Shown here piece by piece: positions 39,736 through 55,893 of a DNA stretch of 64,000 bases; the stretch's first letter is position 1, and each line of letters starts with the position of its first letter. Location of the stretch: contig JBAQFJ010000001.1 of the NCBI GenBank assembly GCA_049287205.1, forward strand, positions 43,156-107,155, given 5' to 3'. The position numbers and the translations under genes were made by a program. The notes under the pieces are model-generated. The model ran no database searches. It was not told the DNA's origin and was given only the letters and a program-made list of their open reading frames with translations. This DNA comes from Microgenomates group bacterium. Its GTDB lineage: Bacteria; Patescibacteriota; Microgenomatia; UBA10105; UBA927.

Positions 39736-41631
39736 ATGCCCAAAACCTATTCCGTAAAAGAAGCAGCCGCAATCCTCGGCTTTTCCACAAACACCATCTA
39801 TTCTTTCCTGAACGCGAAGAAACTGAAAGGACTTCGTATCGGCAAAGGGAAGTTTCGGATTCCGCAAAGTGAAATCGACCGGATGACCGGCGCGTCAGCG
39901 TCTGATACTTCAATATCTGAACTACCGGTGATTATTGAGCATCCGCATCGAAATGAAGAAAAATCCCTCGTCTTTCAGGAAACCATTCCGTATCTGCAGC
40001 ATTTGTCGTTGACTGATTGGTTTATTGGTATGGGATCTATCATTTTCGGATTGTCTATGTTTATTTATACCGCATCCATCGAGTTGTTTATTACCACACA
40101 ACTGATGGGGTGGTATTGGGTGCTTCGGGTATTATTTATTTTGTTTGGCGTCGGATTTTTGACGGCGAAGATTTCTGTTCGGGTTCCACCGATTTGGGTA
40201 ACTGTGTATCAGTGTTTGTTAATCGGATCATTTGGGTGGTTTATTGTGATTTCTCATTTAGCACATGACACGCAGGGGACAGTTGTCGGGTTTTTTATCT
40301 GTTTAATCATGCTTGCACACCTCTTTTTCAAACCCGCCTATCACACACTGATTGCGCTCACGGTACTGGAAGCAGTGGTGGTCAATACGATACTCTTTGT
40401 GTTTGCACCGGAGTATCTTGCACTTATCAACGCATCTTTTGGTATAACCGTCCGTTCGGGAATATGGGGACAACTTGCCACGTTAATTGTGCCGTTCGTT
40501 ATGTATCTTTTATTAGTTGTTTCTCACCGATTTTTCCTTCGGTTTTATTATTTTCTTATCATCCTTGGGTCTGTAGCATGCCATATCACCGCGTATTTTT
40601 GCGGCGTGCATCTTTTTTGGCGGCAGGGGCTTGAGTTTTTGTTTACCGGTATCATGTTATTTATCTACGCGATGCGGCAGACGGACGCGATGAAAGCATA
40701 CAAAAAAACATGGGTGACAGGAACAGTTTTAGGGCTTATATTTGCATGTTTTCTCGCTATTGTTTTGGCACTCAGGGTATTTGAACTGACAATGTTTGAT
40801 CATGCAAACAAGGAATTGCAGGTAAAAGCGGAAAACGGCAAGACATATTTGGAAACGGTATTCGGATATGCAAAAAAAAGCTTTGATGTATCTGCTCGGG
40901 AAGAAGGCCTCAGGCAGGCGCTTGAAACGAAAGATAGAAAAACATTAACTGAATCGGCAAAAAACATTTATGAACAATTTCCGCATATGTATCGGATTGT
41001 CATATTGGACAAGGATGGAACTGAACTGGCTAATTATCCTGAAGACGCTGCGTTGATCGGGAAAAACTATGCATACAGGGAGTATTTTCAGGATGCACTG
41101 ATTCAAGAAGGTACGGTATTTTCCGGAGCGGTTCAAACATCAGGTACTGTGAAAAGATATACCATCATTATGGCAAGTCCCATTGTCGAACATGGCACTA
41201 TTTATGGTGCGATTGCCGGATCATTTGATATGGATGAGTTGGGACGGAACCTCCAATCATTTGCAGCAGATGAAGAAGGAGAATATTTTGGGGTATTGGA
41301 TCGTGATGGTGTGCGCATCATCAATCCGGATATAACAACGATCGGATCAGCAATAACTTCTGCAGAGCTTGATAAATTCAAGAACATTCCATATTGGAAG
41401 GAAAATCTTGATACACGGATTAATCCACATGGGGTTCTTGTACATGCAACATATCGCTCGGTGGACTTCGCGAATGTATATATATCCGCAGTCCAGCCGT
41501 ATAAGGAAAATCTTCAGGCGAATTTGATCGCGTTGTGTATCACTTTGGTTATCAGTGCGTATGGGTACATTGCTACGCTCATCGCTTGGTATGTCTGCTA
41601 TAGAAAAAGTAAAAAACATGGAACTGGGTAA
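39736..41631 (+). CDS. membrane-bound one-component regulator: N-terminal HTH (Xis/MerR-like) + multi-TM region + extracytoplasmic Cache-like sensor domain + C-terminal TM
   Basis: [44 protein letters not shown] is an HTH_17-type motif. About 8 TM helices. A ~250-aa domain resembles a Cache fold ([16 protein letters not shown]...YFQDA...VFSG...YTIIMASPI...[12 protein letters not shown]) and is followed by a final TM helix. Its TAA stop overlaps the ATG of the next gene. Confidence 0.55.
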
Positions 41632-44600
41632 TGAATGACGAACTAATTCATCACGGACGTGTTTTGACACCAGAGCCCAAAGGGCTGCGGGTGTTTTCTT
41701 TGCGTATACAGCTCCTTCTTGCCGGTATTTTGTTTATTGGTGTTGGTAGTGTGGGTTTCTTGCTTACCGAAGTAAATAGGCCTTCAAAAGCCGCAGTACT
41801 GAGCGCGGAACGTGCGTCAGCGGCGATTGATGCGATCACCCCAAGCATTATTGCACATAGTTCTTTTGAAGGCCCGTATATTTTGACTATCATGCGTCGG
41901 GATGGATCCTATGCGTATGCATATGTCGAAAATGGTCAGCTTATCAATGATCATTTCACCTCTGATGTCGCTGTTCGTTTTACAAATGGTGATTACGCGA
42001 TCGTTCGTGATTTGCAGCAGAATCATATTTCAGTTTTTTATACGAAATCCGGAAAAAAAGAAGACGGGACGATTGTGAATAAAATGGTGACCGGTATCAT
42101 TCTTCCTGACAAATCAATACTTTCCGCAAAAATGGTAGATGCAACGATTGTGCGAGGGGAGTTGTATGGTGATTTTCGTGCGCTGCTATTTATCGACAAG
42201 ACGGCTATTACCGGAACAATTTCTTCTCACGATATTCTTTCAGCTGTCCGTATAACCCCAACGTTGATGACGGAAGATACAACGAATGCGATTGTTGTGC
42301 AGGAATTATTGAAGATGGTGTATAAAAACACATTGTCGGATGGTGGACGAGTACTTGGGTTAACCACAGATGATGAAAATGAAATAGTCACAGTGCCTCG
42401 TGTTCGAACGCTTGCGTATGCGCCGGGTGTTTCTACGTCTGTTGATGATGAAGAACAAGTGGTACGTGTCACAGGAGGGGTGCAACTCGCGAATGTCGCT
42501 CAGCCGTTGATCAGTGATATTCCACAAATACAAATTGTCAACATTGGTGGAGTCGCACGGTTACAATTTGCTGATTTTACGACACAACAGGCGGCGCAAC
42601 AGTCTGCAGGAAGTACAATTTTTGCTCCTGCCGGCGCAACAGGTGCAACAGGAGCCACAGGTACCGCCGGCGCAACAGGTACGCAAGGTACAAGCGGCGT
42701 AAAAGGAAGTGACGGATCTACCGGAGCTTCGGGAATAAATGGTATTGATGGAACGTCAGGCGCAACAGGTCCAATTGGAGAAACAGGCCCTGCAGGTCCT
42801 CCAGGCTCCGGTTCAGGAACAGGGGATGGAGCAACGGGTGCAACAGGTGCCACAGGTTCAGATGGTCAAACTGGAACGACAGGCGCAACAGGAGTAGAAG
42901 GAACGGTAGGTCCAACTGGCGCAACAGGTGTTCAGGGAATTCAAGGAGAAGTAGGAGTAACCGGTCCGACAGGTGCGACCGGAGTCGTTGGTCAAACAGG
43001 TGCAACAGGAGCTACAGGATCGACAGGTTTACAAGGTCCGACAGGTGCAACGGGTATAAATGGTGTTCAAGGTCAAACAGGGGTTACAGGTCCAACTGGC
43101 GCTACTGGAGCCACAGGAGTTGTTGGACAAACTGGTCCAACAGGTTCATCAGGAGCAACAGGTATACAAGGAACAACAGGACCGACTGGGTCAACAGGAT
43201 TACAAGGAGCAGCAGGGCAAACTGGACCAACAGGAGAAACAGGAGTTGCAGGTCCAACAGGCTCAACTGGGGCAACGGGAGCCTTTGGTCAAACAGGACC
43301 AACAGGTTCTACTGGTGCAACAGGAGCTGTTGGTCAAACTGGTCCAACTGGTTCTACGGGTGCAACGGGTGCACAGGGTATTCAAGGAAACGTTGGGAAT
43401 ACCGGTCCAACAGGCTCAACTGGGGCAACGGGAGCCTTTGGTCAAACAGGACCAACAGGTTCTACTGGTGCAACAGGAGCTATTGGACAAACAGGTCCAA
43501 CAGGTTCCACAGGTGCAACAGGAGCTGTTGGTCAAACTGGATCTACTGGTCCAACTGGTTCTACGGGTGCAACAGGTATTCAAGGAGAACAAGGAATACA
43601 AGGAAACGTTGGAAATACCGGTCCAACAGGTTCCACAGGAGCAACGGGAGCCGTTGGTCAAACAGGATCTACTGGACCAACCGGTGCAACAGGCGCACAG
43701 GGAATTCAAGGTGAATATGGTGTAACTGGTCCAACCGGAGCTACAGGTGTTCAAGGCCAAACAGGACCAACAGGGGCTACGGGTAGCGTTGGACAAACTG
43801 GTCCAACTGGATCCACAGGTGCGACAGGAGTCGCAGGTCCAACTGGAGCAACAGGTGCAACTGGATCAATCGGTCAAACAGGACCAACAGGTGCAACAGG
43901 AACGCAAGGTATTCAAGGAGAAACCGGAGTTGCAGGACCAACAGGTTCCACAGGAGCTACCGGAGCTATTGGTCAAACAGGTCCAACAGGAGCTACTGGC
44001 ACCCAAGGAACAACAGGTCCAACGGGAGCAACCGGTGAACAAGGCTTGCAAGGAAACGTTGGGAATACCGGTCCAACTGGTTCCACTGGTGCAACAGGAG
44101 CTGTTGGCCAAACGGGTCCAACAGGTGCAACAGGAACTCAAGGAGAACAAGGAATACAAGGTATTACTGGTCCAACCGGATCTACAGGCGCAACTGGTGT
44201 TCAAGGTATTACTGGTCCAACAGGGGCTACTGGTAGTGTTGGTCAAACTGGAACAACAGGTCCAACAGGTGCAACAGGCACACAAGGAATCCAAGGAGAA
44301 ACAGGAGTTGCAGGTCCAACTGGATCTACTGGCGCAACAGGTGCTGTGGGACAAACGGGACCGACGGGTGCAACAGGATCTCAAGGTATTCAAGGAAACA
44401 TTGGAAATACCGGTCCAACAGGTTCCACAGGAGCAACGGGAACTGCAGGACAAACAGGACCTACCGGAGCCACAGGTATTCAAGGAGAACAAGGATTGCA
44501 GGGAGATGCAGGTCAAACCGGTCCAACAGGCTCAACTGGTGCAACGGGAGCCGTTGGTCAAACAGGACCGACAGGTGCAACGGGAACGCAAGGTATTCAA

Positions 44601-55135: not shown

Positions 55136-55182
55136 CGGTACACATTTGCGTTTCTGTTGTTGGGGCAGTATATTCTAGGCAT

Positions 55183-55893
55183 ATGGCAGTAAAAAAACAA
55201 CTCATTGTTCCGCTTATCGCAGGTGTTCTTGCTGTGATTGCGTTTGTGCCTGCGCTTTATTTTTATCGTGAGTATACGAATACCAAAAAAACGTTGGAGA
55301 CAACGAAATCGGAAATGGCAAAGACAGGTAATGCGTTTATCACCGATCTCCGTGCTGTTATGCTCCTTCCTGATGAAGAACCGACCATTGCAACGGTTGA
55401 TGATGTCGAGAAAGTGAAGATGAACGCCTTTTTTACGAATGCAGAAACAGGGGATAAGGTGGTGATTTTCAAATCTATGAAAAAGGCGATTCTGTATCGT
55501 CCGAGTATCAAAAAAATTATTGATATGGCGCCGGTGAATGTTGCCTCTGCGCCTTCAAAAACAGTGTCTGAATCAGTGACGCCAACACCAAAGTCTGTTG
55601 TCGGGTCGCCATATACGTTTATTTTATATAACGGAACAACGAAAGTCGGATTAACAAAAGGGTACACGACTATTGTTGAGGAGAAAATCGTGGGGGCAAC
55701 TGTTGTTGATACAGACAATGCGGTAAAGAAAGACTATCAGACATCGATGCTTAGTGATATAAAAGGGACAAAGGGGGACGATGCCACTGCAATTGCAAAA
55801 ATCTTAGGGTTGACCGTCAGTCCACTTCCTGCAGGAGAAACTGCGTCACAAAGCGCTGATTTTCTTATCATTCTTGGCGCCGACCAGAAGTAA
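55183..55893 (+). CDS. LytR_C (LytR/CpsA/Psr C-terminal) domain membrane protein
   Basis: N-terminal TM helix. C-terminal ILYNGTTKVGLTKGYTT...GATVVDTDNA...ILG. Confidence 0.45.
   Translation: MAVKKQLIVPLIAGVLAVIAFVPALYFYREYTNTKKTLETTKSEMAKTGNAFITDLRAVMLLPDEEPTIATVDDVEKVKMNAFFTNAETGDKVVIFKSMKKAILYRPSIKKIIDMAPVNVASAPSKTVSESVTPTPKSVVGSPYTFILYNGTTKVGLTKGYTTIVEEKIVGATVVDTDNAVKKDYQTSMLSDIKGTKGDDATAIAKILGLTVSPLPAGETASQSADFLIILGADQK

Follow-up and report, generated by a model that had tools for sequence, protein, structure and literature searches.

A long Gly-X-Thr-rich collagen-like region ending in a C-terminal globular β-sandwich head, which is held outermost, is shared by BclA of the Bacillus exosporium nap and the fibres of Pasteuria. 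The collagen region of BclA is glycosylated, and glycosylated bacterial collagens typically have much Thr at the Y position. The surface adhesins Scl1 and Scl2 of Streptococcus and Lcl of Legionella likewise combine a globular domain with a collagen stalk, and in the SlaA/SlaB surface layer (S-layer) of the Sulfolobales a membrane-anchored trimeric stalk protein and large multi-β-sandwich proteins are encoded side by side. The locus described here, which is compared below with each of these systems, is a block of seven genes (g1 to g7) at 39736-55893 of a 64,000-nucleotide (nt) stretch of DNA, hereafter the window, to which all coordinates refer unless a locus of another genome is named. It belongs to an uncultivated, ultra-small bacterium of the candidate phyla radiation (CPR; Microgenomates/Woesebacteria). 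Beyond the type IV pili described in cultivated Saccharibacteria (PMC9894109, PMC12206443), little has been explained of how cells of the CPR, or Patescibacteria, recognize their hosts and stay attached to them.

The block is a real and tightly packed set of genes, comprising seven consecutive open reading frames on the plus strand that were all confirmed; lepA and an AT-rich spacer precede it, and a convergent gene follows it (Table 1). Since six of the seven genes are inherited as a set in related genomes, the block probably encodes an apparatus for surface attachment, or a surface coat, that has not been described before. The account favored here, which is given about an even chance of being correct, is that of a modular cell-envelope locus building an extracellular fibre-and-lectin apparatus with a dedicated peptidoglycan-remodelling helper. 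Such a collagen-like and lectin-like surface apparatus would be of a known general kind; what is apparently new is the domain family of the modules that make up g4 and g5, together with the unexplained but recurrent linkage of this family to an enzyme of the g6 type. Literature searches on collagen-like, S-layer or appendage proteins of the CPR found nothing describing either the cassette or the module family. Among named sources, those nearest to the large genes of the block are metagenome-assembled genomes (MAGs) of Candidatus Woesebacteria.

Related loci in other genomes are labelled L002 to L031, some of them written as pairs (L002/L009, L011/L028, L013/L021 and L023/L024). For g2 (neck and head) through g7, synteny with the window extends to at least six additional loci, which come from separate genomes of Woesebacteria type. 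The order of a fibre gene with a g2-type neck and head, g3, paralog A (g4), paralog B (g5), g6 and g7, with overlapping or abutting boundaries, is complete in L002/L009 (Woesebacteria UBA5941), L004 (a 1.37-Mb contig), L005, L008 (UBA925), L010 and L029 (an 88% relative), and is kept without g6 in L011/L028. In some cassettes, g7 is preceded by a separate copy of its own N-terminal domain. The flanks differ between loci, with lepA in the window, CarboxypepD_reg, G6PD and AcrB in L004/L005, and ATP-grasp genes in L002. Because both the order and the overlapping or abutting boundaries recur in orthologous loci, the tight spacing is not due to chance. The synteny that the initial annotation proposed to test for the seven-gene block is found for six of the genes: the neck and head of g2 and g3 to g7 are co-inherited, whereas g1 is absent from those loci. 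As g1 is missing there and L031 lacks g3 to g6, the block is modular rather than one indivisible unit. It is a composite of a lineage-specific sensor/regulator with the N-terminus of the fibre, a wider cassette running from the neck and head through g3, g4, g5 and g6, and g7. The g3, g7 and g2 neck/head sequences are confined to the Woesebacteria-type cassette.

The same modularity is what would be expected of a loose neighbourhood, in which independent envelope proteins share export or expression needs or merely recent descent, with g6 as an ordinary low-molecular-weight housekeeping penicillin-binding protein (PBP). The absence of g1 from most cassettes, of g3 to g6 from L031 and of g6 from L011 agrees with this explanation, as does the general occurrence of compact same-strand arrays in small CPR genomes, most of the window itself being encoded on the plus strand. 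It is nonetheless improbable. The order is kept among genomes whose proteins are only 20-60% identical and whose flanks are completely different, and in four CPR loci that are much more distant a g6-type gene adjoins module proteins, in three relative orientations, a pattern for which common descent by itself would hardly account. Several of the relatives come from fragmented assemblies, and some MAG taxonomic labels are unreliable. Indeed, L010 (CAYMVN010000018.1) is labelled 'uncultured Pseudomonadales' and L011/L028 (CAYTIP010000001.1) 'uncultured Gammaproteobacteria', and both carry the Woesebacteria-type cassette, so these labels probably reflect an error of binning or taxonomy. Counts of sigma-70 promoter and intrinsic-terminator consensus sequences were at the level of shuffled sequence, and so speak neither for nor against the single operon that had been proposed. 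No RNA genes were detected when the window was scanned with Rfam and for tRNAs.

Table 1. Positions of the seven genes, their domains and motifs, and other features of the window (TM, transmembrane; HTH, helix-turn-helix; aa, amino acids)
Feature	Position (nt)	Strand	Residues	Description
lepA	37405-39378			upstream border of block
lepA-g1 intergenic	39379-39735	.		357 nt, AT-rich; likely promoter/operator region (candidate)
TTGTGTGAY boxes	39381, 39435, 39457			three copies
27-nt direct repeat	39631-39657 and 39663-39689			imperfect, 78% identical, in AT-rich DNA
g1	39736-41631	+		predicted membrane-bound one-component-type protein, 631 aa
g1 HTH_17	39748-39882	+	5-49	helix-turn-helix domain
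g1 membrane region		+	97-349	about 8 helices
g1 dCache_1	40801-41469	+	356-578	Cache domain
g1 last TM helix		+	598-616	followed by short tail
g2	41631-45869	+		fibre protein, 1412 aa
g2 TM anchor	41712-41768	+	28-46	N-terminal
g2 N-proximal domain	41769-42632	+	47-334	no family match
g2 Gly-X-Y region	42633-44708	+	335-1026	229 triplets
g2 neck	44709-45347	+	1027-1239	cassette-specific
g2 head	45348-45866	+	1240-1412	C-terminal, predicted jelly roll
g3	45875-47548	+		557 aa, TM-anchored, β-rich ectodomain
g3 TM anchor		+	28-46	
g4 (paralog A)	47545-50799	+		1084 aa, two-module protein
g4 Ala50	47692-47694	+	50	invariant Ala of A-x-A
g4 module 1	47695-49269	+	~51-575	
g4 module 2	49270-50796	+	576-1084	
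g5 (paralog B)	50822-54121	+		1099 aa, two-module architecture as in g4
g5 tail	54038-54118	+	~1073-1099	conserved, specific to paralog B
g6	54137-55135	+		membrane-anchored PBP-A-like serine hydrolase, 332 aa from GTG 54137
g6 S-L-L-K	54485	+	S117-K120	residues numbered from GTG
g6 S-D-N	54677	+	S181	
g6 K-F-G	54947	+	K271	
g7	55183-55893	+		236 aa, N-terminal TM anchor, last gene of block
g7 N-domain	55300-55536	+	~40-118	conserved
g7 C-terminal domain	55609-55881	+	~143-233	LytR_C-like
Convergent gene	55895-56488	-		downstream border of block
HExxH protein	56482-57192	-		236 aa, polytopic membrane protein
GT4 glycosyltransferase	57831-59258	-		~2 kb downstream of block
Pilin-like protein	5636-6604	+		322 aa
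Locus 1 collagen protein	8136-15461	-		2441 aa

Most of the junctions first read from the DNA stand, with small shifts of position. The shared TAATG at 41629-41633 gives a 1-nt overlap of g1 and g2, and the ATGA at 47545-47548 a four-base overlap of g3 and g4. The start of g3 had been placed at 45876 after a 6-nt gap and lies one base earlier, which leaves a gap of 5 nt. The start of g5 had been placed at 50821 and lies one base later, with an alternative in-frame ATG at 50801. A GTG start for g6 is possible at 54137, as proposed, but ATG 54152 ('MKQT...'), five codons further on, is the start used in the orthologs and in the public gene call and is likely the true one. A gap of 47 nt separates g6 from g7. 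As had also been predicted, the products downstream of the regulator are extracytoplasmic or membrane-anchored in character, each of g2 to g7 bearing a single N-terminal hydrophobic segment; this helix points to membrane anchoring or export, the topology being deduced from sequence. No LPXTG motif (searched as LPx[TSA]G) occurs in any of g2 to g7, and anchoring by a sortase was consequently rejected.

The collagen-like character ascribed to g2 is borne out by its match to the Pfam family Collagen (PF01391; E 4.4e-100) and by the Gly-X-Y repeats that define bacterial collagen-like surface proteins. The triplets fall into two runs (residues 335-394 and 400-1026), Thr occupies the Y position in 143 of the 229, and the region would calculate to a length of ~200 nm if fully triple-helical. 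The neck and head together form a non-collagen C-terminus of 386 residues. In an AlphaFold model of the last 373 residues (pLDDT, the predicted local distance difference test, 78, rising above 90 for roughly the last 150-170 residues), the predicted head is a jelly roll resembling lectins and carbohydrate-binding modules (CBMs). A search of PDB sequences with the C-terminus returned nothing meaningful, and the neck has a weak match to a PHROG of no assigned function (E 2.7e-4). The overall plan is that of BclA and the Pasteuria fibres, although the predicted head of g2 is CBM-like and no similarity to C1q/TNF-like domains, the type that forms the trimeric head of BclA filaments, was detected. 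The g2 repeats reach 326 bits against NF038329 (SclB; cutoff 325) and also score against the Lcl and SclA models of NCBIfam. This similarity to the streptococcal and Legionella proteins comes from the repeats only, and g2 differs from Scl1/Scl2 in having no LPXTG, in its opposite polarity (N-terminal anchor and C-terminal head), and in its unrelated non-collagen domains. A GT4 glycosyltransferase is encoded ~2 kb downstream of the block and may bear on glycosylation of the Thr-rich collagen region.

Across orthologous cassettes, the neck/head region (the last 330-390 residues) is 55-62% identical, while the remainder of g2 is exchanged. Shafts of collagen are found in the window and in L011, those of L004, L005 and L010 consist of 'GNVGIGTT'-type repeats, and the fibre gene of L009/L002 encodes a repeat shaft of 2745 aa and, in the longer call made in L002 (1-8246), begins with a MerR/HTH_17-type helix-turn-helix (HTH). 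The collagen protein of L031 has a related jelly-roll head without the cassette-type neck. The shaft thus behaves, as far as these sequences go, as an exchangeable spacer around a conserved tip, and the collagen stalk emphasized by the initial annotation is present in g2 but replaceable, orthologous cassettes mostly using non-collagen shafts. In L029, the 88%-identical relative, a 100-N scaffold gap (~6980-7080) lies inside the collagen repeats, so that synteny on its left-hand side could not be judged. Collagen-like genes are assembly breakpoints, and shaft lengths taken from MAGs are therefore unreliable.

The two large proteins encoded after g3 are, as first described, paralogs of ~1,100 residues, 37% identical from end to end. 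The two halves of g4 are themselves 31% identical (E 1e-62), which indicates a tandem duplication of a ~500-aa module, and g5 shares the same architecture. In g4, an N-terminal hydrophobic helix is followed by a linker with an invariant Ala50 (..VHA|ES) and then by the two modules. Both proteins are acidic (isoelectric point 4.6-4.7), with a high content of Thr, Ser and Asn and hardly any Cys. The predicted structure of g4 (pLDDT 71) is all-β and comprises six sandwich jelly-roll domains, three per module, whose fold would be CBM-like. The fold relatives are galactose-binding-like and jelly-roll CBMs (CBM4, 6, 16, 22, 29, 32 and 61) at identities of 7-14%. Unlike these, g4 and g5 match no Pfam or CBM family, carry no attached catalytic domain and do not qualify by sequence for membership in CAZy, and both the twice-three arrangement of six domains and the motifs IYDGYFSNGSN and EYNDTTTDD are specific to the CPR module family. 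The possibility that the paralogs are secreted enzymes is countered by the model of g4, with its CBM-like fold and no catalytic domain. Neither g4 nor g5 matches NCBIfam or PHROGs, and g4 has no match among PDB sequences; together with g3, for which Pfam, NCBIfam and PHROGs gave no match, they confirm that the large proteins belong to no recognized family. Homology between the jelly rolls of g2 and those of g4/g5 could not be demonstrated, because profile-profile comparison of the g2 head with the g4/g5 family found no relationship (probability 0.4%).

The paralogs A and B are orthologously paired in every cassette locus. Orthologs of B are 44-53% identical to g5, compared with 34-41% for A-to-B comparisons, and A orthologs likewise stand nearer to g4 than A does to B; the duplication that gave rise to A and B therefore predates the divergence of these genomes, and both copies have been kept. 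A conserved C-terminal tail in g5, '..SQMRHGKWWFGGFPWKFGY', sets the B proteins apart: the aromatic- and Gly-rich motif QMRGGKWFxG...SF (~25 aa) occurs in all six B orthologs (L004, L005, L008, L009, L010 and L011) and in no A orthologs, and corresponds to no known sorting or wall-binding signal. Only 20 homologs of g4 were found among 5.8 billion protein clusters, and a profile of 22 paralogs retrieved 133 proteins (clusters at 50% identity) among 1.84 billion representatives, 86 of them at E <1e-30. On this sequence evidence, the ~500-aa module defines an apparently new and rare family, all attributed members of which come from CPR bacteria, the named sources being Woesebacteria, Saccharibacteria, Gracilibacteria and Doudnabacteria. 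Members contain one to four modules, reach 3581 aa and often possess other C-terminal domains. Nearly all full-length members begin with a basic stretch, one hydrophobic helix, a linker of 10-30 residues and an A-x-A motif, followed by YQ[FY]xPTxGxLVxGT. The invariant Ala of A-x-A (Ala50 of g4, with its equivalent in g5 and in P0001-P0149) directly precedes the first jelly roll, and the motif lies 10-30 residues past the helix, a greater distance than is usual for cleavage by signal peptidase I. Three distant members, P0118 (40.7 bits), P0025 and P0034, start with a cytoplasmic HTH_17. An N-terminal HTH_17/MerR-type HTH, a membrane helix and a giant extracellular protein form a recurrent combination in this family, whereas in the window the HTH sits on the overlapping gene g1.

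These properties also suit a different reading, in which g4 and g5 would be the two subunits of a paracrystalline S-layer or continuous coat anchored to membrane or wall by g3, g6 and g7, and g2 would be either a separate fibre merely sharing the locus or a stalk carrying the canopy in the manner of SlaB and SlaA. The acidic, Thr/Ser/Asn-rich and nearly Cys-free composition, the strings of β-sandwiches and the constant A/B pairing would fit such subunits; the conserved aromatic/Gly tail of g5 could be an anchor to the wall or to a partner, and the wall-related g6 and g7 are linked to g4/g5. CPR cells reportedly carry S-layers whose proteins are unnamed. As for SlaA/SlaB, the likeness is one of function and gene arrangement, with no sequence relationship, and the stalk encoded here would be some ten times longer and is variable in length, in a bacterium with peptidoglycan enzymes in the cassette. 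Set against a coat are the lack of SLH, CWB2 or any other known anchoring domain in g2 to g7 (Pfam, NCBIfam), the rarity of the family, and the range from one to four modules and up to 3581 aa with a cytoplasmic HTH in some members, which is unlike a housekeeping lattice subunit. Furthermore, the close relative L031 has no g4/g5 at the locus, and the shaft length of g2 varies several-fold between orthologous cassettes. An S-layer or coat is accordingly judged unlikely, though it retains appreciable weight. The anchoring role would fall in part to g3, which displays the juxtamembrane motif LGFxExDF..STSGAxYETN and a Cys pair (C349, C354); its orthologs are 19-26% identical (71% in the close relative L029) and always lie between the fibre gene and g4.

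The enzyme of the cassette, g6, matches the Pfam family Beta-lactamase2 (PF13354; E 6e-37, 127 bits against a cutoff of 22), whereas its score against the NCBIfam model for class A β-lactamases (NF033103 bla_class_A) of 68.8 bits is far under the 200-bit cutoff. Its closest solved structure is PBP-A (Tll2115) of Thermosynechococcus elongatus (PDB 2j9o; E 1e-11 over 250 residues), a DD-carboxy/endopeptidase (PMC11189452) related to class A β-lactamases. The S-x-x-K and S-D-N motifs align between g6 and PBP-A and are kept in 11 orthologs, so that g6 has both the Pfam domain above threshold and the Ser-Lys and Ser-Asp-Asn motifs of PBP-A-like/Beta-lactamase2 proteins. The third motif reads K-F-G in g6 and in its orthologs from Woesebacteria; one relative from Gracilibacteria has K-I-G, one from Doudnabacteria has K-H-G, and L025 has K-M-A. 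In the PBP/β-lactamase superfamily, the Thr of the K-T-G motif contacts the substrate carboxylate, and it is this Thr that is replaced in all cassette-linked g6 members. These also differ from PBP-A in their N-terminal membrane anchor and in being genetically tied to giant surface proteins. The family score and a third motif of K-F-G rather than K-T/S-G led to the rejection of g6 as a class A β-lactamase. The initial description as a β-lactamase-like hydrolase is therefore correct as to fold, but from its sequence the better reading of g6 is that of a PBP-A-like DD-peptidase whose third motif is non-canonical. The association with module proteins extends well beyond the cassette, a g6-type gene being found next to a module protein in four distant CPR loci, including those of Gracilibacteria and Doudnabacteria, in an upstream (L013/L021 and L014), downstream (L025) or convergent (L027) position. 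In L031, the g3-g6 slot (15494-18364 of that locus) is occupied by a single 956-aa Peptidase_M23 protein, followed by an ortholog of g7 and by the three minus-strand genes that are also present in the window. This alternative occupant again belongs to a family of peptidoglycan cross-link hydrolases.

The last gene of the block, g7, had been called a LytR_C protein, a designation that was not reproduced on g7 itself, which does not match LytR_C (PF13399) even at E 10 and has no match in Pfam, NCBIfam or PHROGs. It is LytR_C-like only through its orthologs: in an alignment of g7, its orthologs and three shorter proteins consisting of the N-domain only, 7 of 10 sequences match LytR_C (best E 3.3e-5), and g7 aligns with these over the whole C-terminal domain. 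The catalytic LytR-CpsA-Psr domain (PF03816) was not matched by g7 or its orthologs, which leaves the accessory LytR_C-like domain only. The N-domain also exists as a separate gene of 143-164 aa in L004, L005 and L010, and an ortholog of g7 is present even in L031, which is without g3 to g6. Beyond the convergent gene, the minus strand encodes a polytopic membrane protein with a HELSH (HExxH) motif and no Pfam match, which may be an intramembrane metalloprotease; it also lies beside g7 in L029 and L031, together with neighbours of 197 and 236 aa.

At the other end of the block, the description of g1 as an HTH-Cache membrane protein proved accurate. HTH_17 (38.1 bits against a cutoff of 27) and dCache_1 (48.6 bits against 45) both exceed their Pfam thresholds, giving g1 the domain composition of a Cache-domain one-component regulator, and the HTH also matches the excisionase-type HTH model TIGR01764 of NCBIfam. 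About nine hydrophobic segments are present, and their arrangement would place the HTH in the cytoplasm and the Cache domain, of extracytoplasmic type, outside the membrane. ToxR and CadC, by analogy, and Cache sensors resemble g1 in joining a cytoplasmic DNA-binding HTH, membrane helices and an extracytoplasmic-type ligand-binding dCache_1. Unlike in ToxR/CadC, however, the HTH of g1 is of the excisionase/MerR-like HTH_17 type and not a winged helix of the OmpR type, and g1 differs from both groups in its eight or so helices before the Cache domain and in having no transmitter domain, a rare architecture for which 17 homologs were found. An identical protein (100%) is annotated at NCBI as 'DNA-binding protein [Microgenomates group bacterium]', and a homolog of 86% identity probably lies on the same 15,252-bp ENA contig as a homolog of g4. 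Neither g1 nor the N-domain of g2 has a homolog in the cassette loci of other Woesebacteria (jackhmmer), and the regulator, which had been counted as a member of the system, thus lies outside the conserved cassette. It is conserved instead with a g2-type collagen fibre beside lepA in a closer lineage: in L030 and L031 (g1 at 58% and 49% identity) the order is a tetratricopeptide repeat gene, lepA, g1 and a g2-like collagen gene overlapping g1, and the regulatory role of g1 is proposed on the strength of this arrangement.

Within the spacer between lepA and g1, the direct repeats noted earlier (at 39636-39683) are present at somewhat wider coordinates, but constitute a weak two-copy family. The sequence TTGTGTGAY has 4 sites in the whole 64-kb window, 3 of which lie within 85 nt (39381-39465) just downstream of lepA, and this cluster is possibly a better candidate operator, from its sequence, than the 27-nt repeat pair.

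The HTH domains admit of a reading centred on contact signalling, whereby a membrane-tethered HTH_17 would be released or activated when a surface protein engages the host, with g6 or the HExxH protein as processing enzyme. The HTH_17 at the N-terminus of P0118, P0025, P0034 and the L002 fibre protein, the one-base overlap of g1 with g2, the invariant A-x-A found 10-30 residues beyond the membrane helix in almost every member of the family, and the retention of the HExxH protein beside g7 in L029 and L031 could all be seen in this light. The reading is nonetheless entirely inferential; most cassettes (L004, L005, L008 and L010) are without any HTH and begin with ordinary signal peptides, and HTH_17 is a common domain that may denote simple regulators, so that signalling of this kind is considered very improbable. 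A broader version would hold that giant lectin-like proteins of three-jelly-roll modules are matured, anchored or released by the K-T-G-less enzyme of β-lactamase fold, and that contact with the host is coupled through HTH_17 to transcription, which together would constitute a contact-sensing attachment organelle of episymbionts. This proposal draws on the fused HTH domains, the linkage to the enzyme across phyla, the invariant A-x-A outside the membrane and the conserved neighbouring HExxH protein, and is a long shot.

Collagen fibres and jelly rolls are also encountered among viral receptor-binding proteins, and the block might on this basis be a tail-fibre module of an integrated or defective phage. 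Indeed, comparison of the g4 model with viral structures (Foldseek, BFVD) returned tail, baseplate and receptor-binding proteins and a collagen-repeat protein of Pithovirus, the HTH of g1 is of excisionase type, and the PHROG match of the g2 neck, weak as it is, points in the same direction. The TM-scores (template modelling scores) of the viral matches are, however, just 0.09-0.22, a similarity at the level of domains, and g3 to g7 have no PHROG matches. Neither in the window nor in the Pfam-annotated loci of its relatives is the block accompanied on its flanks by genes for an integrase or for capsid, terminase, portal or tail tube proteins, and every product has an N-terminal membrane helix. 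In addition, the block holds a stable chromosomal position between housekeeping genes (lepA and the glycosyltransferase). A prophage origin is scarcely credible in view of these findings, and was rejected.

Under the favored account of a fibre-and-lectin apparatus, g2 would trimerise through its collagen region into a stalk of ~200 nm that holds a lectin-like, glycan-binding head away from the cell, a role taken in relatives by other fibrous repeats. The g4 and g5 proteins would form a hetero-complex of multivalent binders of glycans on a partner cell or substrate, docked at the conserved neck and head, possibly by way of the membrane-anchored g3, or would coat the surface. The g6 enzyme would trim or open peptidoglycan cross-links locally so that proteins of 115-135 kDa might pass or be seated in the wall, a task performed by dedicated wall hydrolases in other systems that span the envelope, and g7 may help to organise assembly at the wall. 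The link to a wall enzyme is drawn from the conserved motifs of g6, the proximity to PBP-A, the g6-type genes beside module proteins and the Peptidase_M23 protein in the corresponding slot of L031. Presumably coupled to g2 in translation, g1 would sense an extracellular ligand through its Cache domain and control transcription from the lepA-g1 intergenic region, with the TTGTGTGAY boxes as its best operator candidates. Several observations weigh against this account. The alteration of the third PBP motif (K-F-G, K-I-G, K-H-G or K-M-A) implies that the substrate may not be ordinary peptidoglycan, the module protein of L023 (L023/L024) has no g6-type neighbour, and L011/L028 shows no g6 gene in the stretch seen. 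Furthermore, g1 is missing from most cassette loci, and the structure models are monomeric, that of g4 being of only moderate confidence.

Elsewhere in the window, the large collagen protein of a second locus (locus 1) had been joined to the block as part of the same system. It comprises a cytoplasmic N-terminal region of ~125 aa, a transmembrane helix, ~1300 aa of Gly-X-Y repeats and a fibre-type C-terminus of 950 aa, and shares with g2 the collagen repeats only. The proposed connection is weak, and a functional link was set aside as unsupported in the absence of similarity beyond these repeats. With g2, this makes at least two collagen fibres with a membrane anchor in the genome. A further gene of the window encodes a protein with a prokaryotic N-terminal methylation (type IV pilin-like) motif.

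The envelope proteins of CPR bacteria are mostly annotated as 'hypothetical', and the locus supplies conserved candidates for study, namely a predicted stalk of ~200 nm with a lectin-like tip and two predicted six-domain lectin-like proteins. The apparently new domain family, known to date only from the CPR, could become an annotation profile, and an exchangeable shaft around a conserved tip is a useful template for reading other giant CPR proteins. Experiments in vitro could directly address the recurrent link between the module family and a PBP-A-like enzyme whose active-site motif is altered. Should the apparatus prove to be only a coat or an adhesin, it would represent a modest extension of the known bacterial collagen-like surface proteins.

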